A stretch of DNA of 64,000 nt from Bacteroidia bacterium (GTDB lineage Bacteria > Bacteroidota > Bacteroidia > AKYH767-A > 2013-40CM-41-45): the NCBI GenBank assembly GCA_035341855.1, contig DAOQWA010000007.1:18646-82645 (forward strand), given 5' to 3'. Below the pieces are notes generated by a model that was given only the letters and a program-made list of their open reading frames with translations, ran no database searches and was not told where the DNA came from. Shown here one piece after another: positions 1,381-20,847 of this stretch. Made by a program: the position numbers and the translations under genes. Position 1 is the stretch's first letter, and each line of letters starts with the position of its first letter.

Positions 1381-1481
1381 TTGGGCTTTACGAATGAATA
1401 TTTATATATTGTACTTGTCAATGTGGGTTTATTCAACTCCTTTGATTAAGTGAATAAGTAAATTTTTTGCGCCCGCTTTTT

Positions 1482-3158
1482 ATGGTTGACAAAGATCCCG
1501 GCTTGTATGCCTGTAGTTTGTTTCTGAATTTGGAAGATGAAATTATTGCTGAGATCCTTTCAGATTCAGAGGTGAAAGAGTACCCTGTTGGGGCTGTTTT
1601 TATTGAAAAGGGCAAAGTGCCGGATGCATTGTTTATAATCACAAAAGGTAAGGTTGGCATATATAATGAAGATGTGTTGCTGGCTCAACTGGAACCTTAC
1701 TCCATGATGGGTGAAAGCTTTTTGGCAGATGCATCGGCTACTGCCACTATCGTTACCCTCACTGATGTGTCTACTGTTGAGATAAAGAGGGAGCTGTTTT
1801 ACAAGCTTGCTGTAAAGCACCCCAGACTTGTTTTCAATATTTTCAATATCAACTTTCAAAGACTTCGAAATTCAAATGACATTGCTTTAAAGGAAGCACA
1901 TGAGCGGGAAGCGAAATTGGAGAAGTTGGTCAATGAACGTACCAAAGAATTGTTCGAGACAATGGAAGTGCTTAGATCTACCAATACTGAATTATCAATT
2001 ACCAGAGATAATCTTATTGAAACCCAGAAATTCAGACAGCAGTTTCTAGCAAATATGAGCCATGAGATCAGAACTCCGATGAATGCCATCGTTGGTTTGA
2101 CTAATCTTCTCATTAAAACTCCGGTAAACGAACAACAGGAAAAATATTTGCAAGTGATCAAGAAGAGTGGTGCTAACCTGTTGGTAATCATCAATGATAT
2201 TTTGGATCTGGCAAAAATAGAGAGCGGAAAGATGGAGTTGGAGTCAGTACCTTTTCCTCTGATCAATGCAGTACACAATATTCAAACGATCCTTAGTCTT
2301 AAAGCTGAGGAGAAAGGTATTAAAATGATCGCCGATATTGGTTCAGATGTTCCTGAATATGTCCTCGGAGATGAAACCAGAATTACCCAGGTAATCATGA
2401 ACCTTGCCGGTAATGCTATCAAGTTTACTGAGAAAGGTAGTGTTAAACTGTCTGTTACAATAGAAAGTAAGGATAAGGATACCTATAGAGTGCATTTTAG
2501 TCTTAAGGATACAGGAATAGGAATTCCGGAGGATAAACTTGATACAATTTTTGAAAGTTTCGGACAAGCATCCAGCGCCACCACCAGAAAATTTGGTGGT
2601 ACAGGTTTGGGACTGACTATATCAAGACAACTTGTCGAAATGCATGGTGGTGAACTGAAAGTACGAAGCACTTTTGGTAAAGGATCGGAGTTCTATTTTA
2701 CAATACCTTATGTTGTGGCCGATAAGCCTGCCGAAGAGGTAGGTGCAGAGTTTGGAGATCAGGAGAAGCTGGCAGGAATGAAAATTTTACTCGTGGAGGA
2801 TAATGAATTCAATCAGATGGTTGCTGTGGACACCCTGCAGGATCTATTTCCTGACTTAAAAGTTGATGTGGCACTGCACGGCAAAGAGGCAGTGGCTATG
2901 GTCCAGGAATCTGATTATCGTTTCGTGTTTATGGATATTCAGATGCCTGAGATGGACGGATACGAAGCCACAAGAGAGATAAGGAAACTAAAAGATGAGC
3001 ACAAGAAGAATATCCGAATTTGTGCAATGACAGCAAATGTGACAAAAGAGGAAATTGACAAATGTCTTGCGGTTGGCATGAATGACTACCTGATGAAACC
3101 CTTTGATCAAGAGGTTCTTCGTGAAAAAGTATTAAGAAATGCTCTTGAGGGTGATTGA
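1482..3158 (+). CDS. hybrid sensor histidine kinase/response regulator with N-terminal cyclic-nucleotide-binding (CAP effector) domain
   Basis: The listed ORF begins at TTG 1467, so the first ATG at 1482 is the likelier start. The N-terminus has a cNMP-binding pattern (VGAVFIEKGKVPDALFIITKGKV...GESFLAD...ATIVTL). This is followed by a coiled coil, a HisKA H-box (SHEIRTPMNAIVG), an HATPase_c domain (GTGLGLTISRQLVEMHGG) and a C-terminal REC domain (KILLVEDNEFN...FMDIQMPEMDG...K). Confidence 0.85.
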   Translation: MVDKDPGLYACSLFLNLEDEIIAEILSDSEVKEYPVGAVFIEKGKVPDALFIITKGKVGIYNEDVLLAQLEPYSMMGESFLADASATATIVTLTDVSTVEIKRELFYKLAVKHPRLVFNIFNINFQRLRNSNDIALKEAHEREAKLEKLVNERTKELFETMEVLRSTNTELSITRDNLIETQKFRQQFLANMSHEIRTPMNAIVGLTNLLIKTPVNEQQEKYLQVIKKSGANLLVIINDILDLAKIESGKMELESVPFPLINAVHNIQTILSLKAEEKGIKMIADIGSDVPEYVLGDETRITQVIMNLAGNAIKFTEKGSVKLSVTIESKDKDTYRVHFSLKDTGIGIPEDKLDTIFESFGQASSATTRKFGGTGLGLTISRQLVEMHGGELKVRSTFGKGSEFYFTIPYVVADKPAEEVGAEFGDQEKLAGMKILLVEDNEFNQMVAVDTLQDLFPDLKVDVALHGKEAVAMVQESDYRFVFMDIQMPEMDGYEATREIRKLKDEHKKNIRICAMTANVTKEEIDKCLAVGMNDYLMKPFDQEVLREKVLRNALEGD

Positions 3159-3238
3159 CCCGGGACTGAGAAATCTGAGATTACTCTGATAAAAGTTAAT
3201 TGTTTTATACCTGCGACATAGAATTAAAAGACATTTTT

Positions 3239-3868
3239 ATGAATCATGTAAAATCAAGACCAATATCAGATAGAAAATTTACAATGGACAGGTATATAAA
3301 ATTAAAGGAACATATACTCGGGTATTTAAAAGCAAGATTGCCGGATAATTTATATTACCACAGTTATAATCATGTGATCGATGTATTGGGTGCAGCTGAA
3401 TTTCTTGCAGAGAAGGAAGGCTTAAGCCCGATAACGAAAGAGCTTGTAAAAGTTGCAGCATTGTTCCATGATTCAGGCTTTACAATAGAAGCCAGGGAGC
3501 ATGAGAAATTAAGTTGTGATATTGCGCGGGAATTGCTTCCGGAATTTGGTTATACTTTAGCAGAGATAGAACTGATAGCTGCTATGATCATGGCAACAAA
3601 GTATCCGCAAAGTCCGACTAACTTAATGGAAGAAATAATTTGTGATGCCGACCTTGATTATCTGGGTCGCGAGGATTTTTTTGAAATTGGAGGCTTACTT
3701 TTAACTGAACTGAATGAATCTGGCCGGTTTAAAACTGAAAAGGACTGGAATCATTTTCAGGAAAAGTTCATCAGTTCACATAAGTATTTTACAAAAACAG
3801 CTCAGGAACTTCGTGAACCTAAAAAGTTGGAGCACTTAAAAATGATCAGAGAAAGTTTGAAAGATTAA
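3239..3868 (+). CDS. HD-domain metal-dependent phosphohydrolase
   Basis: HD motifs are present (YHSYNHVIDVL, ALFHDSGF, CDADLDYLG). The start is chosen at the internal ATG 3239, downstream of the listed ORF start at 3200. Confidence 0.7.
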   Translation: MNHVKSRPISDRKFTMDRYIKLKEHILGYLKARLPDNLYYHSYNHVIDVLGAAEFLAEKEGLSPITKELVKVAALFHDSGFTIEAREHEKLSCDIARELLPEFGYTLAEIELIAAMIMATKYPQSPTNLMEEIICDADLDYLGREDFFEIGGLLLTELNESGRFKTEKDWNHFQEKFISSHKYFTKTAQELREPKKLEHLKMIRESLKD

Positions 3869-3903
3869 TCCGAAAAATTATAAAAGGATTTTGCAAAAAA
3901 AAA

Positions 3904-5925
3904 TTAAGACCTGATGCCTTCAACAAAATACATGTCTATTTCACCTTTGTTTTTAGCTTTTATTTTTCCACGGTGAATGCATTTGAATTGATCTTTAATA
4001 ATTTCATAAGTAGGTCCGCTAACATTTACCTTGCCTACCTCGCCACTTGATTCCATTCTTGAAGCAGTATTAACTGTGTCGCCCCAAATGTCATAGGCGA
4101 ATTTTTTAATTCCGACAATTCCTGCTACAACAGGTCCGGTATGAATACCAAGCCGAAGTTCAAAAAATGGCTGTCCGGTTGATTCTCTTTTTGCTTTGTT
4201 TTTCGCAATGAATTCCTGCATCTCAAGACCGGCTTTCACTACATCTGTTGCATGTGTAGAGTTTGGTGCCGGAAGACCGCCTGCGCACATGTAACTGTCA
4301 CCAATAGTTTTAATCTTCTCGATACCGTATTTAGTGATGATCTTATCAAATTCGCTGTAGCAATAATTAATTTCTTCGACTAATTCTTCGGCCGATAATT
4401 TTTCGCTGGCCTGAGTAAAATTTTTGAAGTCAGTGAACATGACACTTACCTGATCAAAGCTTTTTGCTTTTGCAGATCCTGTTGCTTTCAACTCTTCAGC
4501 TGTTTCTTCCGGAAGAATGTTCAGGAGTAATTCTTCACTGCGTTGTTTTTCTTTGGCTATTTTCTTTTTCTGAAAGAATACAACTACAAGGAAGATGCAC
4601 ACTACAGAAAGTCCGCCGATAGTAGCATTTTTAATTTGCTTTTGTCTTTTAAGATCCAGTTCCTGTAAAGCTTTGTCCTTTGTCAGGAGATCAATTTGTC
4701 CTTGTTTCTTTTGGATATCGAAGGTGAATTGTAAGCCGGAAAGTTTTTTATCGGCATCAATATTATAAAGTACTTGCTTGATTTCTGTAAGCTTACTTTG
4801 GTAGTTGTAAGCTTTTTCATATTTACCTTGTTTTGCATAAGCGAGTGCAAGTCCGGCGTAAGTATTCATTAGTTCAATGTTTGATCCGCCAAGTTCTTCA
4901 CCCAGTTTTTCTGCTTCCGAATATGCGCCAATTGCCAAGTTGATATCTCCCATAGCAAAATAGGTATCACCTAACCAGAGTCTTGCTTGTGTCATGTCCA
5001 AAAGAGTTTCCAGTTTTTTGGAAATTTCATAGGCGTTTTTTTGATAGCTGATCGCTTTGTTGTATTCTTTTCTACGGGCATAAATTCGTCCGATCCAGTT
5101 CATTGCCGCCGGAAGGTCTTCACTTGTTTCAGAAATTTTCATTGCTTTTTCAAAGTAGACGAGGGCCAGACTGTCGTTTACTTCTGCAAGGCTATCGATT
5201 GAAGAGCGATCGAGTGATTTGTATTCAGAGGACTGTGATATTTGAGTTGTGTCTTTTCGGAAATATGCTTCACCTATGTTAATACAAATTGTTCCTATTG
5301 CATCTTTTGTTTCCTGTGATTCTTGATCATGATAAGCTTCCATCAGTGGAAGGGCTCTGAAGTAATATTCCAAAGCTTTGTCATAGGTTTTAGGTTTGTT
5401 GGAATAAACACCTCCAATATTTGACAAAGCAGTTACTATTCGAAGTGTATCCTTGAGCTCTTCTGAAACTTTGAGAGAGTTGAGATACAGTTCAAGAGCT
5501 TTGTTATCATCCCCCTGATTAAAATAGACTGCGCCTTCATTGCTTAATATATTTGCTACTCCTGTTTTATCTCCAATTGAGTCAAACAAAGCAAGAGACA
5601 GCTCCCAATATTCAAGTGTTTCGACTGATTTTCCTTGCAAATAATATCCAATACCAATTGATTTTAAAGCGGTGGCAGATTCTTTCGCAAGATTTGATTT
5701 GACTGCAAGATCATTGGCAAGTTCGGCAAAGCGAATTGCCTTTTGCGGATCCGAGCCATAATATTTTTTTGCAAGTTCAAGAAGTGCAGTTACTTTAAGC
5801 GAATCATCATTCGTTGTTGAGATGATGCTTTGAAGGCTGTCAATTTCTTCGTTTTGAGCGACTGTTAGTTGAGTCAGACCAAAAGAGAGTATAAAAAGCG
5901 AAAATACTAGCCTATACATTGGCAT
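3904..5925 (-). CDS. TPR-repeat, membrane-anchored class III adenylate/guanylate cyclase
   Basis: Signal or TM segment at the N-terminus, many TPR-like repeats, one internal TM helix (IGGLSVVCIFLVVVFF), and a C-terminal CYC domain (FTDFKNFT...IKTIGDSYMCAGGLP...LRLGIHTGPVVAGIVG...WGDTVNTASRMES). Confidence 0.85.
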   Translation of the reverse strand: MPMYRLVFSLFILSFGLTQLTVAQNEEIDSLQSIISTTNDDSLKVTALLELAKKYYGSDPQKAIRFAELANDLAVKSNLAKESATALKSIGIGYYLQGKSVETLEYWELSLALFDSIGDKTGVANILSNEGAVYFNQGDDNKALELYLNSLKVSEELKDTLRIVTALSNIGGVYSNKPKTYDKALEYYFRALPLMEAYHDQESQETKDAIGTICINIGEAYFRKDTTQISQSSEYKSLDRSSIDSLAEVNDSLALVYFEKAMKISETSEDLPAAMNWIGRIYARRKEYNKAISYQKNAYEISKKLETLLDMTQARLWLGDTYFAMGDINLAIGAYSEAEKLGEELGGSNIELMNTYAGLALAYAKQGKYEKAYNYQSKLTEIKQVLYNIDADKKLSGLQFTFDIQKKQGQIDLLTKDKALQELDLKRQKQIKNATIGGLSVVCIFLVVVFFQKKKIAKEKQRSEELLLNILPEETAEELKATGSAKAKSFDQVSVMFTDFKNFTQASEKLSAEELVEEINYCYSEFDKIITKYGIEKIKTIGDSYMCAGGLPAPNSTHATDVVKAGLEMQEFIAKNKAKRESTGQPFFELRLGIHTGPVVAGIVGIKKFAYDIWGDTVNTASRMESSGEVGKVNVSGPTYEIIKDQFKCIHRGKIKAKNKGEIDMYFVEGIRS

Positions 5926-5976
5926 TTCTTCAATTTAATTGGATTTGTATCCGGATAAATTTATAAATCGCAATGT

Positions 5977-6011
5977 AAAAAAAAAGAGGGAACCATGTCC
6001 CTCTTTTTTTA
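5977..6011. terminator. bidirectional rho-independent terminator
   Basis: A9-AGAGGGA-accatg-TCCCTCT-T7: a GC stem flanked by an A-run and a T-run, directly 3' of the giant minus-strand gene. Confidence 0.6.
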
Positions 6012-6027
6012 TTGGTGAAATAAGATA

Positions 6028-6270
6028 TTATTGTTTTTTAATAACAAAGAACTTCTGTACAGTTGTTTTGTCATCCTTGCTTACAGAAAGGAAATAAACA
6101 CCCGGAGTCCATGTAGATGACTCGATATCTATTCTATGTTCTTCGTTCGCTTTCACGAAGCGATCAAACAGTATGCTTGTTCTTGAGCCATTGATCTGAT
6201 AAACTTCAACAACAACCTGCCCATCATTCTTGCCAATAAACTTTAATACTGCATCCTGAGATGTTGGATT
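6028..6270 (-). other. T9SS type-A C-terminal sorting domain of the giant protein
   Basis: C-terminal ~80 aa: ELYPNPTSQDAVLKF...VVVEVYQINGSRTSILFD...GVYFLSVSKDDKTTVQKFFVIKKQ. Confidence 0.75.
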
Positions 6271-9200
6271 AGGGTAAAGTTCAAACGATCTGCCTGCATC
6301 AAGATCTGTCGATTCAAGTCTGCAATTTGTGTTTATTGAAACCGACTTATTCAAAGGAAGACTTAATCCACACAGGTTTTCTGCCTTCACGGTTAGTATG
6401 GTCGAGTTAGCCGTGCCTGTAGTGAAATTAACAAGAGCGGAACTTCCGTTTCCTTGTGGTGTAGGGATGACGCCATTTGTAGCATACCAATGATAAGAGA
6501 TTGTACCAGGGACAGAAGAGCTGGAGTACAATACTGAAGTCTGACTCTTACACACCGATCCAGGTCCGTCCATTGTAGAAGGAGCGGCAAGTAATGCTGA
6601 TACTGGTAAGCAACGAGAAATAGAAGCACCACAACTATTGGTGGCGCTCACACACACAGTTCCGTTACCGGTAAATGCTGCAGTATAATCGACAGTGATT
6701 GAGGTACCGGTATTATTGACAATGTTTACTCCCGAAGGTACAGTCCAGTTATAGCCTGTTGCACCCGCAACCGGCGCTATGCTGTAAGTAACTCCACTTT
6801 GTAAACACAAACCTGTGTAAGGTCCGGAAATTCCACCCGGCTGACCCGGGATAGAACGTATCGTAAATTCACGGGTAAATGTTCCACAGATATTCGTTGT
6901 TGATATCGACAAGACTCCTGTAGTGAATGAAGGTCCAAAATTAAAGTTTGCTGAAGTTCCGCTTTGTGATGCCACGGAAACATCGCCGCTTACAACTGCC
7001 CATGTGTAAGTATCAGTTCCTATGACAGGCGCCATGGTATAAGATACATTATTTGTTCCGGCGCATACATATGTTGGTCCAACTACAGCATTGCCATTCA
7101 CCGGTGTTCCGGTGATAGTCATTGAACGGGTAGAGGTAGTTCCCATACAATTAGAAGCATTGACCATCACTCTTCCTTGTCCGAATGCTGCACTAACACT
7201 CACAATAATAGAGTTGCTTCCCTGACCACTCAGGATGCTGGCTCCTGCACCGGTGACTGTCCAATTATAGCTTGTTGCATTTTGTACAGGAGATAGAGTG
7301 TAAGTGTGTAAGCCCGGTCCACAAGCTATGGCAGGTCCGTTGATGAATCCCGGGTTAGAAGGTCTGAGAGAAAGTACAATGATATTCGTACTTGATATTT
7401 GTCCGCTTCCACAAACGTTCTCAGGTGTTACGCTAAGGAATCCTCCATTGAATGTGTTGGAGAAAGTCAGGGTAATAGATGTAGAAGTAGATGATCCGCT
7501 AGTACCCGGAGGTATTGTCCAGGCATAGGAGGTAGCTCCTGATACAGGTGCAATAGAATAAGTCACTACAGAATTTCTACAAGCTCCATAAGGACCTGAA
7601 ATGGCACCGGCCGGTTCAGGTGGAATACCTGCTCCGCTAACCGTAACTGTTACCACTCCGGTACATCCCTTTGTATCTGTGATCGTAACTGAATAAGGTC
7701 CGGCACTTAATCCGGTGGCAGTTTGTGTTGTTTGGTTATTTGACCATAAGAAAGTGTATGGTGCCATACCGCCTGTAGGATTGATCGTGGCAGTTGCATT
7801 CGCCAATCCGCATATTTCAGTGGTTGTAGAACTTGTTCCTTCAACTTTAGCAGGTTCAGTCATCTCAAACGTGCCTGTTGCAATATTTCCATTGTCATCT
7901 GTTACAGTAAATGTTTGCATACCTGCCATTACTCCGCAAACTATTCCCGTACCTATATATGGTCCCGTTCCTCCCGTGACATTTACGGTCACGCAACCTG
8001 TTCCGCCGAAGCATTCAATTGCTGTTTCTTCTGTCACAGTAACTTCTATCTCCGGTGCTAACATAGTAAGCACTCCCAGATCGTAGGTGATCATGAAGTT
8101 GTTTGACGAAAGGAGAGGTGCAGGTACAATTGTGTGAGTCCCTACAGTTGTTCCTGTGATCAAATTGATGGAGTAGAAAGTATCCAGCGAATCCGTCGGA
8201 GGAGCGTTCACATCTTCTTCGTCAATGATTACCACTACATCATCATGTGTCGGGTCGTCTATGTCTTCGCTATTGACAATTGCACGTCCATTTACAATGG
8301 CTCTGGCATTCACAATTGCTCTTCCGTTCACAATTGCTCTTCCATTCACGATTGCCCTGGCATTCACAATTGCTCTGGCATTTACGATTGCTCTTGCGTT
8401 AACAAGTGCAGATGAATCCGGGTTTAACTGATAGTTAAAGATAGATTCAACGCCAACATCCACAACATTGGTTGTATCGTATTCGGTGATATTGTTCACT
8501 ATTGCCCTGGCATTTACAATAGCTCTGGCATTTACGATTGCTCTGGCACTAACAAGGAATCCTAAATTTTGAAGGTCTGAGTTTACGATTGCCCTTCCAT
8601 TGACAATTGCACGCGCATCCACCAGGGCAGTAGCGTGTTCTGCGATGTTTTCAAGGTGTTCTGTTTGCAAATCAAGAAGGAAAGAATTCCTGATTGAGCT
8701 ATCTATATTGGTTTCATCGTAGGTGTAGCTGTATGAGAATCCATTGATCTGTTGCCCTTCAACCAATGTTGTATCATTTGGCTTAATAACCAGAGGAAGT
8801 TGTTCAACTGAAATTAGTCCGTCAACGAAGGAGTATGTATAGGCTTCAAGTAAAGCAACGTCTATACTATCTGCCGGATCAAGCACTCTCATAGATGGTC
8901 GGATGAAATAAAGGTCCACATTGCTGAGGCTGTGTGCCGGAGTGGTGAAGAAGATCGTATCTAGTCCTACATCAGCAAGAGTCAGACCGGTATTTTGAAT
9001 AGGAACACTATCTACCAATACAGTCGCAGTGAATGCAGGTAATACTTCTCCATATTTTTTAGAAGTGTCATTTGCAATTACTATGATTGATTGTTTTGTA
9101 CTTGGGAAGAAAAATGCAGAATCTGAATATCCGCCATCGTTCATATTTGTCACTGTTGGTGGAGTGTATACCTGTACAGGCGGGTTGCCAATGAACGAAG

Positions 9201-12200
9201 GGAAGGTGGCAGACAATTGAGTTGAACTAATCCTTGTTGTCGGTAATGAATCACCCCTTAATAGAATTACAGAGTTAGCTGTAAAATAATGTCCGTTCAC
9301 GGTCACATCAAAACTTTGTGAACCCGGAACAATAGTAGTGTCATCAGGCGATAAACTTGTAATCAAAGGTTTTCCTGCGGCAAATGACTGTAATGCTGCA
9401 TCAGCCTGGATGAATCCAAAACCGGTGCTGTCATCATAACCGATAGTCGGTCCCATTTCGATGGTGGTAGTCTTGAGGATATTTCGAATGTTTTCAGGAC
9501 TGAGTGCCTGATTATAGAATTTTTGTCTTCCTTCAATGAGCAATGCCGCAACGGCAGCAGCATGAGGAGCTGCAGCAGAAGTACCATAGAAGTTAGGGAA
9601 GCCATCACCATCGATATCCGGGCCACCAAGAGTAACAGTGGTGTTCACTCCATTTGGCGCTACGAAATCAGGTTTCATTCTATCGACGCCATTTATCAAC
9701 GTTCCTCCGGTAGACGAGAATGTAGCAATAGTCGGAGGTGATTGTCCGAAAGCAGGGGTGTATAGGTAGAGCGCTGCGCCGACTGTCATGGCTCCGGTTG
9801 CGTTCGCTTGTCCAACGATAGTTGATGATGCAGTATTGAATTCGTCAATTGTTGCCTCACCGCGGAATATGATGTATTTAAATTTCACATTCGGCGCACC
9901 GGCAACTTTTGTGATTAGAATATTGGCACTGGTTTCAGCTCTTACAGAGAATGATAATACTTCTACCGGATCTCCCCAAATATTATTTCTATTGAAACCG
10001 AAGAGAACGGTTCCATCATTATCCACAAGATAAAGATCAAGGTCTGTAAGCGCTCCGGGAAGCTGTCCGAGTGAGTACATAGAATCTTCCCACTGTAAAA
10101 CGATAGTATAGGAGCCGCGACCTAATGTCAAATGCTGGAAGATATCTCCTCCACCAAAATCATGTGGTGTTCCAAAAACTCCGGGAGGAGCAACAGCTGC
10201 CTGGAAAGTACTTTCATAAGACTTGTTGCCATAATTACCTGCGGCCGTGAAATATGAAACGCCACGATCCGCTACTTCATTAACTGCTCTGGCAACAACA
10301 CCATCCTGAAAGAACGGTTCAGTAATAAAAGTAATGTCATCAACAAGTACATCACAGCTATCATCAATACCAAGTTGTTTGATTCCTTTTGCAAGATCAC
10401 CTGCACTGATAAATCCGGTACGGAATGCAAGTTCAGCATCCGGTGCGACATCGTGAACAATTTGCAACATGGCTCTTCCTTCATCGGTACGGATACCGTA
10501 AGGATACTCTTTAAGAACATTTACCGGATTGGAATTATTAGGATTTTGGATCCCCGGCAAATCTCCATTTTGGACATTTGCTAATGCAGGGTTACCGGTA
10601 ATAGTATTGTAACTATCTGAAAGAACCCCGACTTTAACACCGGCACCGGTTACTCCAAATGCAGTTCGTGCCCTGTCAGCCCGCATGGCTATATCCCCAT
10701 TGCTATATGCAATTCCGGTTACACCGGTACCTATTACAGGCGGATAATATGGACGACAGAAATTACATAATGTAGTGAGTGAATCAACTTTGTATAGGTT
10801 TCTAATCGGAAACTTACCTGTGATGATTAAACTACTCAATCCATTATCAACTGTATCAGTCAGTCCATAGTCAGGTGTAATCAATAGATTATATAAACTA
10901 TCTGTCATACCATCCTGAGCAATGAATTCCATCAAGACACTATCAGCTCTGAATAATAATAGGTTTTGGTTTAGAGTATCTGCTACGATGGAATCAACAT
11001 TATTCGAAACTGATGTTAATTCTGATCCCAATATTGTTCCTGTTCTGCCACTATCAGTTGGCGTAACAGCAGGGACAATACATGTGATGATAGTAACATT
11101 AGCTGACGTTCCTGCGAAGCATCCGTTGTTGTCGGTCACTGTATAAAAATAAGAACCGGTAAGCAGGTTTGTTGTACTGGCTCCACCTATATTATATGGT
11201 GGTGTTCCTCCGTCTGGTGTCAATGCTACGCTACCTGTACTTCCGATACAAACATCCTGTGCCGTTGGATCAGCAGTGAGAGTAAGTTGGCTTGGCTGTG
11301 TAATTGTAACATCACAGCTGGTGCTACAGCCATTTGCATCCGATACTGTAGTTGTATAGGTTCCGGCAGCTATGTTATTGTAATTTCCGGTTCCTGAATA
11401 AGGTGCCGTTCCTCCTATAGCAATTACGACATAAGATCCGGTACTGTCACCGTAACAAAGAGTATTTGATGTTACTGCACAATTTGCCATAAGTTGAGTT
11501 GGTTCGGTGATGGTCGCTATACAGGTAGTCTGACAACCATTGGCATCAGTAACAGTGTAGTTGTAATCCCCGGCTGATAAACCTGTTAATGGGTCACCTG
11601 TGATCGTATATGGTGCCGTTCCTCCGACAGGAGTAACTGCAGCCACACCATTATTTCCTCCATTACATGATACCGCACTTTGTTCTGAACCAATTGCATA
11701 AAGGTAATCAGGCTCGGTTATGGTTGCAATACATGTTGCAATACAACCCAAAGCATCCTCAACTGTAAATGTCGGAGTTCCTGCGCTCAGATTTGTGAAA
11801 ACACCTTCTCCTGTATAAGGACCGGTGCCTCCGGAAGCTGTCACCGTTACCACAGCATCGTTTCCTCCGTTACAACTTACTGCTGAAGTGACAGAGCAAT
11901 TTGCAACTACTGTGCACTGAGGTGGTTCATTGATCGTTACAGAACATGCATAAGACGAAGAACCGCAGCCATTAGCATCATTTGCATAATAGTAATAAGT
12001 TCCTGCGGAAAGATTTGTATGAAGTCCTTCATCGCCGCTATATGGCGGTGTTCCACCGGAGGCAGTGACTAAAGCTACACCATCATTTCCGCCATATGTT
12101 GTGACGTCACTAACAGTTGAACAGACTGACAGTAACAGGTCAGGTTCAGAAACTGTTGTGGTACAATTGGCGAAACAGCCGGCATCATCTTGAACTGTGA

Positions 12201-15200
12201 AAATATATGTTCCGGCGCCATAGTTGCTGAATACGCCTTCTCCTATATAAGGAGCTAAGCCACCAGATGCTTGCACTTCGATTTGTGCGTCATTGTACCC
12301 ATTACAGCTTACGGTTGAGATCACCGTACAACTTGCTGTAAGATTACAAGGGCCATCGTTAATAGTGACTGCACATGAATTAGAAGAAGAGCCACAATTA
12401 TTTGCGTCATCAACATAGTAGTAGTAAGTCCCTGCAGATAAATTTGTGTGAATTCCATCATCACCACTATAAGGCGGGGTTCCACCTGTGGTTGTAACTA
12501 AAGCAGCTCCATCATTTCCACCTGCGATAGTTACATCATTGATTGTTGAACATACGAACTCTAACAAAGCAGGTTCGTTGACGGTTACCGGCAAGAGACC
12601 GCTGCCGCAACCATTAGCATCAGATCCTCCTATGAAGTACTGGCCTGGTGCCAGGCTATTGAATACACCGGAATTATTTTGTAAGTAAAGGCTATTAGGT
12701 CCATAAAGATAATACGAATAGCCTGTAGGGTAGGTGATAAGGTCTGTTTGAAGAGTACCGCCTGAAATACCATAAAATTCCAATTGTCCGTTGTTATAGC
12801 CGAAGCATGTAACATGAGTAGGGTCAACTGATCCGGTTACAACAAGAGTTGGTTGTGTAACAGTGACTGAGTCTGTATCCGTACAGCCTACTGAGTCTGT
12901 TATTGTAAATACGACCGTTGTGTCTGTTCCGATAAATCCGTTTATAGTCTGCAGTCCTATTCCGGAATAAGGTGCAGTTCCTCCGGCAGCAGTTACGTCG
13001 ACTTCAAACACATATCCATTGCAGTCAGGTGTACCAGCATTCAATGAAATTGTTGGAGAAGAGTTTGAGATGACCACATTAACGCTTGCAACCTCAAGGC
13101 ATCCAATGGCAGAAATTACTCTAATGTAATATGTTCCTGTAGTGTGTGCATGATTTGAATCCAAAGGGATAGTCATATCAGAATCTTCCCAATATGTAAA
13201 TGTTAAAGGCGATGTTGAATAAGTTCCGGCGGTGATGGATGGAGCACTAAGATCAATAGGTGATCCATTACATGAAGGAGGTGGGTCGTTCACGATCAAT
13301 GATACTGAATCGCTAAGGACAGTAGTAGAGATTGTGTCAGTACAGCCGTTGTTGTAGAAGATAATTGCTTCATAAGTACTTCCACTTGTAACAGATATTT
13401 GATTTGTAGTCTGAGATCCGGGACTCCATAAATATCCGGTGAAAAAATGATCACTCAAATAGGTTGAGTTTAACCAGGATGTTGAACCATATATTGTAGC
13501 AGGATAAAAGGTTGGAGAAGGAAAAGAAGGGCCGGGAGGATTGGATCCCGGACCGACAGGTCCTTGAGAATTTCCGTACCAGTCATATCCGAAGTCCTGA
13601 GTTTCTGTTCCATATCCGTCGTACATAGGGATATAACAGATCAGGGATGAAGGAACATAGTCTGAAAAATTAATATATAAGCCATCATTGATATCAGATT
13701 GACTCAATGCACCTTCCCACACTCTCACCTCATCAATAGAACCATTGAAGAACATTGTATTTGATACAGGAACCGACATAGCGATTCTGTATTCTGTTCC
13801 GGAGGTGTTGTATGTTCTGATGCCGGAACCTGCAGGCTGGCCATTAACGTATAACTGTACAGTTGTACCGTCATAGCTGGCTGCAACATGAGTCCATGTA
13901 TTCAGTGGAATTGGAATATTTCCAGTTACACCGTTTGAAGGCGAACCGAACATGAGATTAGAGCCCATCAAAAACAAGCCGCAGCTTTCGGACATATTAT
14001 CATTGATTTGACCATAGTTGAAGATAACTGAATTTTGATTTATTGTCGGGTTGATCCAGGCTTCAATTGTTCTGGAATCATCACCCGGAGGCAATAAATA
14101 ATTTTCACCTTCTGCATAATCAGTGCTGCCATTAAAATATAATGCATAGTCTTCAAAAGTCCTTATTTCAAGTGTGACAGGAGAAGAATTACAGACTGAA
14201 TTATAGTCCGGTCTTGTGATCTCCGCTACAGGATTGGTGTATACCTGGAGATTTAATGAGCTGGAACTACAGCCATTATCATCTGTCGCGCTAATCGAAT
14301 ATGGACTTTGATAGGTGGGATAAAGATTTGTGGTGTCACCCCAAATTTGATAAGGACCAGTCCCACCTGTAACTGCTACCGAAACACTTCCTGAACTTCC
14401 CTCACAAACAAATAATGGATTTGGTGTTATGGTAAGTGTCATTTCATCCGCTTCAAGGATGGTCACAGCTTGAGGTCCCTGAGAAGTTACGCATCCTGTT
14501 GCATCACTAACGTATATCATATAGGTTCCGGCATGCAGGTTGCCGAAAAAGCCATACTGATTGCTGTCATAATATTCATTGATACCGGTAATAGTAACAT
14601 CATAATTCACACCTGAGATAGGTACTCCGCCGCTTATACCGGAAACTGTTACACTTCCATCATATCCATCAAAGCATTCATTGTCTGTTTGGGAAATTGT
14701 GTAACTTAAATTCGGTGAGTCGTTTAGCACAAACGGGTAAGTAGCACTACCGGTGTAAGCAGGATCACTGCTGGTAACTCTCATCCGGTATGCCAATGAA
14801 GTTGAATTAACAGACGGAAGATTTATCTCAATAAATCCTGATGAAGATGAGCTGCCATAGGTTCCTACAACGACAGGTGAGTTGAAACTACCTGTGCTGT
14901 CGCTTAATTCTACATTTATGATGTTTCCGCTGTTAAAGGCTATGTCTGAATTGTATGGTAAAAACAAATAGCTGCCTTCACAGTAAGAAGAATCAACCTG
15001 TCCAAGGTTCAGAAAAGATCCCGGTGGAACTGCCTCCCCAACTTGGAAGTCGCTGAATGTCGTCAGATTGTTGACTTGTATCGAAGTGGCTGTTCGACTT
15101 ACAACATTCACTGGTTGCCAGCCATTTCCGGTATTATACTTTTCTACATTGAACAAAGAATGATCGGCTGCGGAATCAATTTCTGTAGCATCCCAATTCA

Positions 15201-16995: not shown

Positions 16996-17099
16996 GGCAT
17001 TGAGGGGGCATTCAATAGGATTTTCATTTCGAAGTCCGGATCGTTCTTGGTTTTTTACGACATAAGAATTCAAGGTAGATTTAGCGACCATAAGAGTTT

Positions 17100-17433: not shown

Positions 17434-18972
17434 TTACCTTATAATGGTGAATTTTTGATGGCTCAGGGAAAAATTAGATTCAACTACGAGAATGTAAATA
17501 CCTTCCGCAAATTGGCTGATGTCGATTGTGTTCAAATCGTTAGCCAGGAGTCCGGTATGTACTGAACTACCGTCGGTTTTTAAAATTTTGAATGGAGTTG
17601 GTTGATGATTATCTGACAGTTGGATGTGTAAATTATCGTTAACAGGAATCGGAAACAATTTGAAAGAAAGCTTCGGAGGACCCTCAGGAATCTCGACAAG
17701 ACTGAATGCCAAAATATTGGAGCTGGAAATACATCCATTTTGATAAACTATTTTGGCTTGATAGTTTCCTGAACTCTGAGGAACCAGATATGAAAGAGTA
17801 TCGTTTGTCAGAAGGACAGAGTTTAAAAACCATTGAATATTTCCGGCGGTAGAGGCAAAGATGCTATCATTCAATAGCGAGATCGAAATGGAGGGCGAGG
17901 GGAGTATATCAATATTTATGTCATCTGAGTCGGAACAACCATTACTATCTGTAACCAGTAAAGTAAATCCTGTAGTTGAGTTGATTGTTGCAAGAGGGTT
18001 TGCAATTAAAGGGTCACTTAATGGCAATGCCGGTGTCCATGTATATGTATAGGGCGTTGTGCCTCCGGAAGCAGAGGGGTTTCCTCCAAGTGAAATGCTT
18101 TCGCCTTCACAAATGACGAGATCTGTTCCGGCATCTGCATTAAGGTTGCTTACGTTCACGAACAAAGAAACCGGAAGGCTGCTTCCACAACCATTATTTG
18201 CGACAACTTGAAGATTTCCTGAATTAGAATTTGCCATTACAGTAATACTGTTTGCGGATGAGCTTCCTGTCCATCCGGCCGGAATTGTCCATGAATAAGA
18301 TGTTGCGCCGATTACCGGGTTTATTGTATAGGTCTGCGTAGTGCCATGACAGATAGCCGGATTTCCTGAAATTGGATTTGGTTGATCAGGCACCGGACAA
18401 ACTTGTTCAGTGACTGTCAAGCTTGATTTGTAGACATAGTCATTATTGTCATTAGCGTTTCCGTCTGCGGCAACGCCTGCAAAGTAAAAGCTCACAGGCC
18501 CTGTACCGCTGGATGGTGCTGTCCAACTAAAATTAAAAGTTTTTGACCCGCTTGCAGCACCGGCATTTAGTTGATGGACAACATTTCTTCGAGTTACAGA
18601 ATTCACCACTCTGGTTTTGATCTGAGTTGCGGCAGCATCGGTGATGACCAAAGTACCTGCATTGTCATTTAAACTATTCAAAGCCTCAAAACCGAAGCCA
18701 AATAAATTATTAGACGTTCTGGACACAGTTATACTCATATTGTAAGTCTGACCTGCGACATACTCATTCAATGGCATTCCGGCATTTTGGAAAGTAATTG
18801 TACCACCTCCGGTATTTACCGGAAAGGAAGAATGGCAGGTCGTACAGTCTGTCTCACCGGGGGATCCGGTGTAACCTGCTCTTCCATCATCGCTAAACTG
18901 CTCACTGGTAAATAGTAAAACCGATAAGAATGGTAATACAGCAGGAATTATTTTCTTTATTATTCTGGTCAT
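17434..18972 (-). CDS. T9SS-secreted protein with PKD-like domain and type-A C-terminal sorting domain
   Basis: Signal peptide (MTRIIKKIIPAVLPFLSVLLF). PKD-like module with the ATSYSWTIPAGWTGSS motif. C-terminal LKLFPIPVNDNLHIQL...GIYILVVESNF...KFTIIR resembles a T9SS CTD. An N-terminal CTTCH (CxxCH) motif is present. Confidence 0.75.
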   Translation of the reverse strand: MTRIIKKIIPAVLPFLSVLLFTSEQFSDDGRAGYTGSPGETDCTTCHSSFPVNTGGGTITFQNAGMPLNEYVAGQTYNMSITVSRTSNNLFGFGFEALNSLNDNAGTLVITDAAATQIKTRVVNSVTRRNVVHQLNAGAASGSKTFNFSWTAPSSGTGPVSFYFAGVAADGNANDNNDYVYKSSLTVTEQVCPVPDQPNPISGNPAICHGTTQTYTINPVIGATSYSWTIPAGWTGSSSANSITVMANSNSGNLQVVANNGCGSSLPVSLFVNVSNLNADAGTDLVICEGESISLGGNPSASGGTTPYTYTWTPALPLSDPLIANPLATINSTTGFTLLVTDSNGCSDSDDINIDILPSPSISISLLNDSIFASTAGNIQWFLNSVLLTNDTLSYLVPQSSGNYQAKIVYQNGCISSSNILAFSLVEIPEGPPKLSFKLFPIPVNDNLHIQLSDNHQPTPFKILKTDGSSVHTGLLANDLNTIDISQFAEGIYILVVESNFSLSHQKFTIIR

Positions 18973-19272: not shown

Positions 19273-20847
19273 ATGAAATTTGAAAAGTACTTTTTCTATT
19301 TGTTGATTTTGGTTCACCTCTTACCGGTGATCTTGTTGCCTTATTTTGTGACGCATGACGGTCCTGCTCATGTGTATAATGCTAACCTGATTCAGCAACT
19401 GTTATTTGACAAGGGCGGCTTGGCATCGTTTTTCTTTGAGTTCAACCCTCAAATCCTTCCCAATTGGATTTCTCATCTCATGTTGCTTTTGTTTAACCAG
19501 ATCCTGAGTCCGGAAGTATCTGAAAGAATCGTAATTGCCATATATATTGTCGCTTTCCCCTTGTCATTCAGGGCCCTTGTACTTGCCATAAATCCATCTG
19601 CCTTCGCCGCAACATATTTGATATTTCCCTACGTACAGGCTTTTTCGATCTTAACCGGCTTGTACAGTTTTTGTCTCGGTTTATGTCTTATGTTTTATGT
19701 TCTGTATAAATGGAAAAAATCCGGATTGCCATTAGATCGTCAGGGTAAAATCTATTTTTCGATATGGATGATACTGATCTATTTTTCGCATCTCTTCGTA
19801 TTTATGTTGGTCATGCTTGCACTTGGCTTCATGATCTGCTGGAAGCATTTCAATGACTTTAGTTTTTCGCTGAAGAAGGTGTTTGCAAATTTTTCATTGT
19901 TGTGGAGGCAGATCCGCATGTTACTGGTGATCTCATTTTTACCCCTGTGCCTTACATTGCTTTTCGCTTTTCATCAGGCATCCAAGACTGATACTGAAAT
20001 TCCGGAGTTTGATACAATGTTAGAATTGTTTATTGATGTTCGACCGATCATAGCATTGAATTATGATATGGAGAAGGTTTATTCAAGGCCTTTGTTCTAT
20101 GTGTACCTCATTCTCTTACTTGCCGGACTAATCATGAAAGTCAGGTCATCTCCCGGTCGAAGTAAAAACTTTGTACAGGCAGAGGATGGTTGGTTCATTC
20201 TTTCTTTACTAATGACTTTCTTTTATTTCTTTTTACCTGATGATATTTTTTCGGGTGGTATTGTTGCTATTCGTTTTTGTTTGATGAGTTATTTGTTTCT
20301 GATACTGTGGTTAGCTGCTTATACACCAAGCAAATTGATGCTTGGAGGAGCTTTATTGTCAGTTATTTCATCGCTTTTGCTATTAAATGAAAGGCAAGCT
20401 TCTTTAAAAGCCTTGTCAAATGATGCTGAAGATTTTGCTGTATGTGAGGAGCACATTGAAGCTGAGAAAACTTTGTTGACGCTTAATTATTCGGACAACT
20501 GGATGTTAGACAATATAGCCAGTTATATCGCTGATGATAAAAATATTCTACTGCTTGATAATTACGAAGCGAATCAGGTACATTTTCCCTTGATATGGAA
20601 GAAGGACCGCGATCCTGATAAGATTTTGGGAAATGCAGGTAAGGCAAATCGACCATGTATTGATCTCTTAAAATATAAATCCTTTACCGGTCTTGAAATA
20701 GATTATATACTTGTGATGAAACGACCTTCAGAAGTTGTTGATTCGTGCACACAATCTGTGGATGAACAATTACGTAATGCTTACCGTGAGATCTTTGTTA
20801 GCCCAAGAGGTCACGGAGTTTTATACAAGCGCTTAGGTTTGTTTTGA
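19273..20847 (+). CDS. polytopic integral membrane protein, function unknown
   Basis: 524 aa with at least 10 hydrophobic helices and no recognisable catalytic motif. Confidence 0.55.
   Translation: MKFEKYFFYLLILVHLLPVILLPYFVTHDGPAHVYNANLIQQLLFDKGGLASFFFEFNPQILPNWISHLMLLLFNQILSPEVSERIVIAIYIVAFPLSFRALVLAINPSAFAATYLIFPYVQAFSILTGLYSFCLGLCLMFYVLYKWKKSGLPLDRQGKIYFSIWMILIYFSHLFVFMLVMLALGFMICWKHFNDFSFSLKKVFANFSLLWRQIRMLLVISFLPLCLTLLFAFHQASKTDTEIPEFDTMLELFIDVRPIIALNYDMEKVYSRPLFYVYLILLLAGLIMKVRSSPGRSKNFVQAEDGWFILSLLMTFFYFFLPDDIFSGGIVAIRFCLMSYLFLILWLAAYTPSKLMLGGALLSVISSLLLLNERQASLKALSNDAEDFAVCEEHIEAEKTLLTLNYSDNWMLDNIASYIADDKNILLLDNYEANQVHFPLIWKKDRDPDKILGNAGKANRPCIDLLKYKSFTGLEIDYILVMKRPSEVVDSCTQSVDEQLRNAYREIFVSPRGHGVLYKRLGLF

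Follow-up and report, generated by a model that had tools for sequence, protein, structure and literature searches.

Why does a giant secreted protein of an uncultured Bacteroidota member repeat one hexapeptide a dozen times, and do such repeats form a switch of variable length, a stalk, a row of motifs read by a partner or part of a folded domain? We addressed this question for a locus in a 64-kb window, i.e. the whole stretch of DNA (64,000 nucleotides) that was analysed.

Hexapeptide units and their reading frame

A sequence-only reading of the window had described in-frame hexapeptide repeats in runs of seven, three and two copies inside a giant T9SS gene. Translation of the minus frame of a 3687-aa open reading frame shows exactly these blocks. 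The perfect units, all of the form [A/G]RAIVN, number exactly 12 rather than the about 13 initially counted, and lie in blocks of two, three and seven at 8272..8616:

8581..8628, minus strand: block 1, leader ALVD followed by ARAIVN and GRAIVN, aa 2822-2837 (units aa 2826-2837, 8581..8616; from translation)
8494..8559, minus strand: block 2, leader FLVS followed by three ARAIVN units, aa 2845-2866 (units aa 2849-2866, 8494..8547; from translation)
8272..8409, minus strand: block 3, leader ALVN followed by seven units whose first residues run A A A G G A G, aa 2895-2940 (units aa 2899-2940, 8272..8397; from TRF and translation)

The leaders are degenerate half-units, one at the head of each block. 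All differences from unit to unit are synonymous, except for the choice of Ala or Gly at position 1, and the codon alternatives in the true frame are AGA/AGG/CGT, ATT/ATC/ATA, GTA/GTG/GTC, AAT/AAC and GCA/GCC/GCT/GCG. The codons quoted earlier (CTC/CTG/CTT and ATT/ATC) belong to an antisense shadow frame, a 68-aa open reading frame on the plus strand (8225..8431) that reads FTIALA and has its wobble positions in common with the true frame. This antisense ORF was rejected as a real product, since its peptide varies (FTIARP, FTMALA, FTIALP) while the minus-frame peptide is perfect.

At the DNA level, TRF detected two arrays, one with an 18-bp period at 8272/8289..8409 (6.7 copies, 81% matches) and the other at 8507..8548; the 18-bp array is the only tandem repeat scoring at least 80 in the window. 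The longest exact repeats within the arrays measure 23, 20 and 17 nt, and two adjoining units are identical at 17 of 18 nt. When 596 Gb were searched with the degenerate pattern RAIVN[AG]RAIVN, 20 loci matched, all of them in Bacteroidota MAGs. As only ~0.1 matches would be expected in this volume according to our own information-content estimate, the repeat is not due to chance.

The arrays reside in a split MBG domain downstream of an S8 protease

The repeat-bearing gene and the relevant parts of its product are as follows:

6028..17091, minus strand: host gene, encoding a 3687-aa T9SS-secreted multidomain protein (ORF list, translation, Pfam and NCBIfam scans)
9112..10704, minus strand: S8 subtilase region, ~530 aa, aa 2130-2660, including the CoaZ PGGG repeat (Pfam, phmmer, motifs)
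8800..9084, minus strand: upstream MBG domain of the YGX type, aa 2670-2764, joining the S8 region to the module (Pfam MBG_2 and sequence reading)
8041..8799, minus strand: repeat module, ~250 aa, aa 2765-3017, consisting of an MBG domain and the insertion that interrupts it (hhalign, Pfam, AlphaFold, homologue search)
8191..8700, minus strand: insertion, ~170 aa, aa 2798-2967, comprising two conserved spacers besides the three repeat blocks (20-locus alignment, hhalign boundaries)
6043..6279, minus strand: T9SS type A C-terminal sorting domain, aa 3605-3683 (Pfam Por_Secre_tail, TIGR04183)

Pfam and NCBIfam scans assigned Laminin_G_3, MopE, SprB repeats, an S8 peptidase, CoaZ, MBG, five PKD_6 domains and a T9SS C-terminal sorting domain to the host protein. 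The sorting domain scored 35.4 bits in the Pfam scan (cut-off 27) and 36.1 bits in the NCBIfam scan (cut-off 23), which identifies the protein as type A cargo (TIGR04183/PF18962), and it is also present in all five relatives checked. Peptidase_S8 matched aa 2420-2558 (Pfam) and CoaZ aa 2574-2645 (NCBIfam). The GTSAxAPH and AGN motifs are conserved in the S8 region, and no I9 propeptide was detected by Pfam in the host protein. The module starts ~100 residues downstream of the S8 region. Between them, MBG_2 matched aa 2670-2733 (E 0.0049, under the gathering score), the end of this domain at aa 2764 being an extension read from the sequence; such a partial MBG_2 is also found in the relatives P0009 and P0005. 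Neighbouring genes gave no clue to the function of the module, and tRNA and Rfam scans of the 64-kb window returned no matches.

Profile-profile comparison with canonical MBG domains (73, drawn from the same set of proteins) revealed homology of both module halves. Residues 2-33 of the module align with MBG positions 1-37 (hhalign probability 90.6%, E 1.3e-6) and residues 204-245 with positions 39-81 (82%, E 1e-5). In Pfam, positions 30-72 of the MBG_2 profile match module residues 203-245, i.e. the C-terminal half only, with 19.1 bits as compared to a gathering threshold of 25 bits for PF18676, and only 7 of 30 module family members contain MBG_2 at E<=0.01. Apart from MBG_2, Pfam at E<=10 yielded only chance-level matches for the module and block 3 (AAA_lid_8, Multi_ubiq, Hint_2), and the NCBIfam scan gave none in the module. 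The insertion spacers read SDLxxLxFLVS and xEYDTTNVVDVxxESIFNYQLNPDS in the alignment of the window with the 20 loci.

The module is a widespread companion of secreted subtilases

An exhaustive search of representative proteins yielded 194 proteins matching the module at E<=1e-3. With a limit of E<=1e-10, the module occurs in no fewer than 92 clusters of proteins (50% identity) and in two to three paralogues per genome, and true relatives score between 1e-56 and 1e-115 in local phmmer. The family consists of T9SS-secreted proteins of Bacteroidota, and in most relatives the module stands within an array of MBG domains. Linkage to the protease is obligate: an S8 region lies upstream of the module in 68/68 homologues with enough upstream sequence to test (local phmmer). 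Distant homologues keep a core [RT]-A-[LIV]-V-N and a constant module length, with array periods of 6, 7, 8, 9, 11 and 12 aa. Units are uniform within a protein and different between proteins (ARAIVN, SRGIAN, GHGIVN, ATALVN, GRLLVN, KFTLVN and others). The earlier impression that this is not a recognised repeat family was borne out, as Pfam, NCBIfam and PDB hold no entry covering the insertion. All database names found for module proteins are "hypothetical protein", and a literature search on the motif strings and "MBG domain" retrieved nothing relevant. The module is thus an undescribed accessory domain in a family of secreted subtilases, and it is strongly selected together with the repeats it bears.

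Copy number is near-fixed and the units are under purifying selection

The repeat number had been proposed as a plausible length- or phase-variable element, to be checked in relatives. We examined 23 related loci, 21 of them complete. The complete loci share conserved spacers and a layout of 0-2, 3-4 and 4-8 strict units. Block 1 has two strict units in 13/20 loci and is degenerate in the other seven; block 2 has three units in 19/20, and its triplet is kept even at a 7-aa period (GSRGIAN x3 and GGRALAN x3 in homologues). Only block 3 varies in count among relatives (4-8), and in P0052, P0128 and P0032 it is expanded to ~45 octapeptide units. The orthologue L002 shows the A/G order of block 3 in the window protein. 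The near-identical comparison for this species, which comprises one contig of another assembly (L021), revealed 99.7% identity over 5759 bp with 18 SNPs, no indel and again 2+3+7 units. Nor do 90%-identity clusters of relatives contain array indels, including P0128 versus P0161 with 73 substitutions. The same copy number in a 99.7%-identical contig argues against both an assembly artefact, which had been named as a possible refutation, and length or phase variation.

Orthologue comparisons show saturation of synonymous sites inside the repeats as well as in the flanks, and nonsynonymous change is ~2-10x lower in the repeats than in the flanks, or absent; one pair displays 43 synonymous versus 0 nonsynonymous differences over 66 repeat codons. 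Within the gene, synonymous divergence between units is near the random-codon expectation. This confirms the proposal that the peptide is kept while the DNA has diversified, and it led us to reject ongoing gene conversion as the source of unit identity. Purifying selection, acting on each residue in all of the units, keeps them identical, and DNA homogenisation is absent.

Predicted structure of the module

AlphaFold predicted a compact fold for the module without a solenoid (pLDDT 81, pTM 0.81); a single-sequence run was of no use (pLDDT 32). Confidence is high in block 1 (pLDDT ~94), ~68 over most of block 2, and drops from ~70 to 37 along block 3 (range 37-72). Identical units are modelled in unlike conformations, namely as strand and as helical turn. 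Structure searches including PDB found no structural neighbour of the insertion. Structure prediction, suggested as a check on the repeat segment, thus delivered a compact module, with low confidence in block 3 and no sign of a solenoid.

Discussion

Several explanations of the repeats have to be weighed. That they are an artefact or no protein feature at all, i.e. a collapse or expansion in the assembly, an antisense ORF or repetition of the DNA itself, e.g. for protein binding, has a negligible probability in our judgement and counts as refuted. Short-read assemblers can mis-assemble tandem repeats and the 68-aa plus-strand ORF does exist, but the region recurs in an independently assembled contig, its layout is reproduced by 20 loci from ~13 other genomes, and the minus frame runs unbroken into Pfam domains on either side. 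Moreover, the perfect peptide is that of the minus frame, not the variable one of the plus frame, and it is invariant although the DNA is poorly conserved. A contingency locus, in which slippage or recombination at the 18-bp repeats changes the length or antigenicity of a surface protein, would fit an in-frame tandem repeat in such a protein, the adjacent pair of units with 17/18 nt in common and the differences of 1-4 units in block 3 among distant paralogues and orthologues. However, inter-unit DNA identity is only ~81% and exact repeats are no longer than 23, 20 and 17 nt. L021 (99.7% identity, 18 SNPs, 0 indels) has the same 2+3+7 layout, count and A/G order are unchanged in orthologues with saturated dS, and the 90%-identity clusters, P0128 and P0161 included, lack array indels. 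The contingency reading is therefore very improbable and largely refuted. The arrays could also fold into a beta-solenoid, one example being a left-handed beta-helix in which each 18-residue turn consists of three hexapeptides. Such a structure would provide a rigid stalk or a flat, repetitive face for binding, and the blocks, counted with their leaders, would amount to 1 + 1 + 2-3 turns. This model, akin to the short beta-solenoid or stalk envisaged from the sequence, was initially favoured because 3 x 6 = 18. It draws on the period of six, the ~3 units (18 residues) that blocks 1 and 2 each make with their leaders, a register V-N-[AG]-R-A-I with an aliphatic residue at i and a small one at i+4 as in the Hexapep consensus, an Asn closing every unit that could form an Asn ladder, and expanded arrays in P0052-type relatives that suggest stackable units. 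We rejected the left-handed beta-helix on the basis of the period variation (6-12 in homologues; 7, 8, 9, 11 and 12 besides six) and the AlphaFold model, in which no solenoid appears even though AlphaFold is good at solenoids. Six-residue periods in 18-residue turns are not conserved, the 4-8 units of block 3 do not come in multiples of three, the consensus accommodates neither the Asn at i+1 nor the exposed Ile at i+5, and Hexapep (PF00132) gave no match at E<=10 for the module or block 3 alone, a search in which HMMER filters lose many weak matches. A solenoid is thus decidedly doubtful.

It is unlikely, too, that the units are identical linear motifs read by the S8 protease of the same chain, be it as pseudo-substrates or inhibitors, as autoprocessing sites or as a precursor releasing hexapeptides. 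In favour of this idea are the tie of the module to the S8 region (68/68), purifying selection on all residues of all units at saturated dS, the lack of a Pfam-detectable I9 propeptide in the window protein, the low AlphaFold confidence over block 3, and the likeness of units within and unlikeness between proteins, which is expected if all must fit one co-evolving partner. On the other hand, blocks 1 and 2 have near-fixed counts and conserved spacers, module length is constant whatever the period, block 1 (pLDDT 94) lies within a compact predicted domain, the units abut without a conserved flanking cleavage signal as judged from the sequence, and, in contrast to the peptide precursors known so far, the arrays interrupt an Ig-like domain within a chain of 3687 aa. 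Somewhat broader, and rather improbable in our estimation, is the notion that the arrays are not chiefly architectural but consist of identical motifs that would all have to be recognised by a single partner. Of the candidate partners, the S8 protease in the same polypeptide is the most interesting, and the arrays would then be an autoregulatory "fuse", a tethered pseudo-substrate or a processive self-processing site; a new fold of mutually packed units would be the alternative. A single shared reader would explain the six-residue identity of all units without DNA homogenisation as well as their uniformity within a protein and difference between lineages. If true, processive self-processing could release identical hexapeptides from T9SS cargo.

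Taken together, the repeats are probably structural elements of a conserved, folded accessory domain of ~250 residues and not a free-length linker or switch. In this domain, an MBG-type domain, presumably Ig-like in fold, is split where ordinary MBG domains have TGFVNGD, by a ~170-residue insertion built of three arrays whose short units end in aliphatic-aliphatic-Asn ([A/G]RAIVN in this lineage). The unit may have arisen through amplification of the MBG h-V-N-G motif, and the units may be buried or packed strand-and-turn elements. As judged from co-occurrence with the S8 region, the module would serve the protease, most likely as a non-catalytic partner that provides a binding or positioning surface or a packing platform. 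Some observations sit uneasily with a compact accessory domain: AlphaFold confidence is only 37-72 in block 3 and ~68 over most of block 2, the insertion is without structural neighbour, and the ~45 octapeptide units in P0052, P0128 and P0032 suit an elongated modular structure better. Differing conformations of identical units are also hard to reconcile with equal selection on six residues, since ordinary structural repeats keep few core positions.

The module is an undescribed and widespread element of T9SS-secreted subtilases in uncultured Bacteroidota, and its signature is unusual: up to a dozen units are identical throughout by purifying selection alone, despite saturated synonymous divergence, and yet both the unit sequence and the period differ from lineage to lineage. 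Identity within and diversity between lineages imply a constraint absent from ordinary structural repeats: the units might pack against one another, match a periodic ligand or all be read by one reader such as the adjacent protease. The module is hence an attractive candidate for structure determination. More generally, tandem repeats that lie in frame in a surface protein need not make it phase-variable or variable in length.

Comparison with known repeat systems

Copy-number-variable surface repeats, e.g. of the Alp/Rib family of streptococci, are long, near identical in DNA and variable between strains. Here, in contrast, the units are of 18 bp, synonymously diverged (81% matches, near random-codon expectation) and stable in number, without polymorphism in L021 or the 90% clusters. 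The Hexapep repeat (PF00132; consensus [LIV]-[GAED]-X2-[STAV]-X, units imperfect) likewise has a six-residue period with aliphatic and small residues at set positions, and V-N-[AG]-R-A-I fits it at i and i+4 but not at i+1. The arrays differ from Hexapep in that the HMM does not match them, no beta-helix is predicted, the period varies among homologues and the units are perfect instead of degenerate. Highly regular repeat proteins that match a periodic partner include the ice-nucleation and antifreeze beta-solenoids and the NSVAIG repeats of YadA heads. The module shares with them strict identity of short beta-prone units and conserved Asn or small residues, but it matches none of them in sequence or fold, homologue period varies, no solenoid is predicted, and the habitats of its carriers are not cold-specific.

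Multi-core precursors processed by subtilisin-like proteases, such as cyanobactin PatE with PatA/PatG or the fungal Kex2-processed repeat precursors, e.g. UstA, also combine tandem identical peptides conserved at the protein level, purifying selection, diverged DNA, an S8-type protease and a lineage-specific sequence. In the module, however, units abut without recognition sequences between them, block counts are fixed (~2 and 3 in blocks 1 and 2), the blocks are set apart by conserved, structured spacers, no modification enzymes are encoded near the host gene, and the arrays form part of a folded domain in a giant protein exported by T9SS, not of a small precursor with a leader. Finally, MBG domains of the YGX type (PF18676, MBG_2) are Ig-like repeats of bacterial adhesins, T9SS and other large surface proteins. 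The module resembles them at its start (LPLVIKPNDTTLVEGQ..FSYSYTYD) and its end (INLITG..VGTHTIVP..NNFMITYDLGVLTML). It departs from them in that, by itself, it stays under the Pfam gathering threshold and in that the short TGFVNGD loop region is replaced by the ~170-aa insertion with its three Asn-terminated arrays.

The repeats in the frame of the giant T9SS protein

In TRF, the 18-bp repeats form arrays at 8272/8289..8409 and 8507..8548, and this region is the window's sole tandem repeat with a score of at least 80. It lies within a single ORF of 3687 aa (6028..17091, minus strand), the minus frame of which contains 12 perfect [A/G]RAIVN units spanning 8272..8616. These are arranged in three blocks (aa numbers refer to the 3687-aa protein):

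Block 1, aa 2826-2837, minus strand: ARAIVN, GRAIVN
Block 2, aa 2849-2866, minus strand: three ARAIVN units
Block 3, aa 2899-2940, minus strand: seven RAIVN units, preceded by A, A, A, G, G, A and G

A degenerate half-unit precedes every block (ALVD, FLVS and ALVN, respectively), and Ala/Gly at position 1 is the sole non-synonymous difference between the 12 units. The sequence-only reading had recognized the repeats in substance, but it counted about 13 units and took the gene to be on the other strand. The codons it cited (CTC/CTG/CTT, ATT/ATC) belong to an antisense shadow frame, a 68-aa ORF (8225..8431, plus strand) reading FTIALA/FTIALP/FTMALA repeats. Since the third codon positions of this ORF coincide with those of the true minus frame, changes that are synonymous in one frame also read as synonymous in the other.

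Its description of the host as a giant T9SS adhesin/protease agrees with the domains detected by Pfam and NCBIfam, all on the minus strand:

Position within the protein unspecified: two Laminin_G_3 domains, a MopE metal-binding motif, SprB repeats and five PKD_6 domains (Pfam)
aa 2420-2558: Peptidase_S8 (Pfam)
aa 2574-2645: CoaZ PGGG repeat (NCBIfam)
aa 2670-2733: MBG_2, an Ig-like domain, weak match (Pfam)
aa 3605-3683: T9SS C-terminal sorting domain (Pfam; NCBIfam adds TIGR04183)

The SprB-repeat region (aa ~1560-1900, about 11390..12410, minus strand) also contains near-duplicate segments of ~115 aa, e.g. ...CSTINDVTIAGGNDGAALVTTTGGTPPYSGDDGIHTNLSAGTYYYYVDDANNCGSSS... and its copy, the DNA of which scores below 80 in TRF. 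The giant gene is followed immediately downstream by a cyclic-nucleotide signalling cluster (1467..5925), and two further T9SS cargo genes are located nearby:

1467..3158, plus strand: cNMP-binding hybrid histidine kinase
3200..3868, plus strand: HD-domain protein
3904..5925, minus strand: TPR adenylate/guanylate cyclase
17434..18972, minus strand: T9SS cargo, PKD_6 plus Por_Secre_tail
26437..28494, minus strand: T9SS cargo, 685 aa, Por_Secre_tail only, the remainder lacking a Pfam match

A 524-aa ORF (19273..20847, plus strand) matched no Pfam family at E<=1e-5.

The repeats occupy an insertion in an MBG-like domain

The blocks reside in a module of 253 residues (aa 2765-3017, 8041..8799), which begins and ends MBG-like. 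Pfam MBG_2 matched the C-terminal half only (residues 203-245 to profile positions 30-72; E 0.002, below threshold). We compared the module with a profile of 73 canonical MBG domains drawn from the same protein family. Using hhalign, residues 2-33 aligned to MBG positions 1-37 with a probability of 90.6% and residues 204-245 to positions 39-81 with 82%. As both halves align, the module is an MBG domain interrupted by an insertion of ~170 residues (aa 2798-2967, 8191..8700). The insertion falls exactly where the canonical MBG domains in these proteins have TGFVNGD or TGFVNND, a motif from which the repeat core, aliphatic-V-N-[G/A/S], may have been amplified.

Block layout and units among relatives

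A degenerate DNA pattern for RAIVN[AG]RAIVN retrieved 20 loci from about 13 uncultured Bacteroidota MAGs in a species-representative genome collection, 2-3 per genome. A metagenome scan added L021 (protein 100% identical), L022 (78%), L023 (62%) and more distant loci. Excluding L010 and L018, which are truncated by contig ends, the 21 complete loci share one anatomy: block 1 (2 strict units, or 0-1 beside degenerate ones), an 11-aa spacer (SDLxxLSFLVS), block 2 (3 units, with one exception), a ~32-aa spacer (xEYDTTNVVDVxxESIFNYQLNPDS), block 3 (4-8 units), a conserved VVVIIDExDVNAP segment and the MBG C-terminal half. Per MAG, there are 2-3 paralogous subtilases with the module, belonging to distinct subtypes (L001/L009/L019 on one 3-Mb contig, L008/L016, L004/L005, L003/L011, L012/L015, L007/L017, L010/L020). 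In the window-like subtype, SprB-type Cys-rich repeats follow the module; in the others, ordinary MBG domains do.

In an exhaustive phmmer search covering 1.84 billion representative proteins, 194 matched at E<=1e-3, of which 92 reached E<=1e-10 and 17 reached E<=1e-30, the best identity being only 49-53%. According to a local control, an earlier word-indexed search without matches had failed at candidate retrieval and not through composition bias. Family members are named "hypothetical protein" in the source databases. Distant members retain an Asn-terminated core, approximately x-[R/T]-[A/G]-[L/I/V]-[V/I/A]-N, and the dominant unit is protein-specific (e.g. VRAAVN, ARTIIN, SRGIAN, GHGIVN, TRAVTN, GRVITN, ATALVN, GTALVN, GRLLVN, GKGIVN, KFTLVN, FRAVVN). 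Mean unit identity is 0.58 within and 0.40 between proteins, with Asn last and the two preceding positions restricted by the defining motif search. Despite a dominant period of 6, 7, 8, 9, 11 or 12 residues, modules remain 215-283 aa long (median 251), and the three units of block 2 are often retained even at period 7. In the homologues P0052, P0128 and P0032, block 3 has grown to about 45 octapeptide units (NGQLRAIV, NGQL[RKQM]A[IL]V; aa ~1230-1800 in P0052), interrupted by short irregular linkers, with the same flanking MBG halves and the same S8 region upstream.

The module accompanies a T9SS subtilase

Of the family members in which 700 or more residues precede the module, 68 of 68 share one S8 region of ~530 aa (window aa 2130-2660), which in most of them ends about 100 residues before the module. 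Pfam analysis of five members gave the order S8, module, T9SS CTD, with MBG domains in all five, while N- and C-terminal extras (LamG, SprB, PKD, HYR) differ from protein to protein. Taken together, these data place the module in a conserved cassette, about 900 residues long, that forms the core of a T9SS subtilase family.

The S8 region itself (9112..10704, minus strand) is atypical, as Pfam covers just the C-terminal half of Peptidase_S8. Among 75 sequences, DEGRAMxQIxHDxAP, conserved at >=90%, stands in for subtilisin HGTHVAG; the aspartate of the Asp motif (GVLSDSY) reaches only 60-90%, and conservation extends to GTSAxAPH and AGN. Candidates for the general base are a Glu, by analogy with sedolisins, and the His nine positions further on.

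Unit identity and copy number are conserved

Nei-Gojobori counts on aligned orthologue pairs gave pS of 0.46-0.89 in the repeats. This reaches the level of the flanks in most pairs; other pairs have a lower pS in the repeats, such as L004 and L020, the closest two (0.19 vs 0.33). In contrast, pN was 0-0.07 in the repeats vs 0.01-0.25 in the flanks. Between L003 and L007, 66 repeat codons differ by 43 synonymous and 0 nonsynonymous changes, at a flank pN of 0.24. Since window and L002 have identical peptides, the few "nonsynonymous" counts between them are probably artefacts of pathway averaging for the arginine codons AGA and CGT. Units of the same gene differ at 2.4-3.8 of the 15 RAIVN nucleotides, i.e. 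75-100% of the divergence expected for random draws from the gene's own codon usage; this near-random synonymous divergence rules out DNA homogenisation as the cause of unit identity. Instead, identity is maintained by purifying selection on each unit. The A/G order (AG / AAA / AAAGGAG) is identical in window and L002 despite saturated synonymous sites, which indicates that the units are individually orthologous and ancient.

The metagenomic contig L021 (Ga0116143_10001345) differs from window positions 5541..11299 by 18 substitutions and no indel over 5759 bp, with 0 substitutions in the repeats. This comparison excludes an assembly artefact and, at 99.7% identity, reveals no length polymorphism. 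The 2+3+7 layout is retained in L002 and L022 (75-78% identical), and one-unit differences occur only between old paralogues, e.g. L001 vs L019 (7 vs 8). In 90%-identity clusters of the expanded relatives, every length difference is an N-terminal start call and the arrays lack indels (P0128 vs P0161: 73 substitutions, no gap). The longest exact DNA repeats in the window array measure 23, 20 and 17 nt.

Structure prediction

AlphaFold reached a pLDDT of 32 with the single sequence. With a 30-sequence alignment (A1), it predicted one compact domain (pLDDT 81, pTM 0.81), in which residues 1-90 including block 1 (90-95) and the MBG C-terminal half (80-96) score high, while pLDDT drops to about 68 in block 2 and from about 70 to 37 in block 3. 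DSSP assigned strands mixed with short helices, and identical units adopt differing states: ARAIV forms a helical turn at 85-89 and 147-151, RAIVN a strand at 92-97 and 142-146. The model contains no solenoid. Foldseek found no structural neighbour in the PDB, a profile-based PDB sequence search came back empty, and Hexapep gave no Pfam match even at E<=10; by these searches, the insert belongs to no known family, whether of structure or of sequence.

Interpretation

We consider it somewhat better than an even bet that the insertion in the MBG scaffold is a folded subdomain with the repeats as integral strand-and-turn elements, probably buried or packed against one another, and that this subdomain is a fixed non-catalytic partner of the T9SS subtilase. 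Packing, and any binding or positioning function, we infer; the data show the anatomy, the S8 linkage, the selection and the stable copy number. This reading explains neither the constraint on all six positions of every unit nor the uniformity of units within a protein alongside their differences between lineages. A reading in which one partner recognizes every unit would address both features directly; the cis protease is the most attractive candidate, with the units serving as pseudo-substrates, autoprocessing sites or released peptides. We regard this as unlikely, since the block layout is fixed, module length is constant and block 1 is confidently packed.

The beta-solenoid or stalk suggested by the sequence-only reading is less probable still, given periods of 6-12 in homologues, the AlphaFold model and the missing Hexapep match. 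Its view of the repeats as a phase- or antigenically variable element finds no support: L021 lacks indels, orthologues keep 2+3+7 and exact repeats do not exceed 23 nt, making a contingency locus very improbable. The chance of an artefact is negligible, as the L021 contig reproduces the region.

The MBG scaffold, the T9SS subtilase/adhesin host type and protein tandem repeats in general are already known, whereas Pfam, NCBIfam, the PDB and the literature searched contain no description of the insertion module, the Asn-anchored repeat family or the selection signature. The way the repeats have evolved is unusual and suggests a constraint that can be tested.
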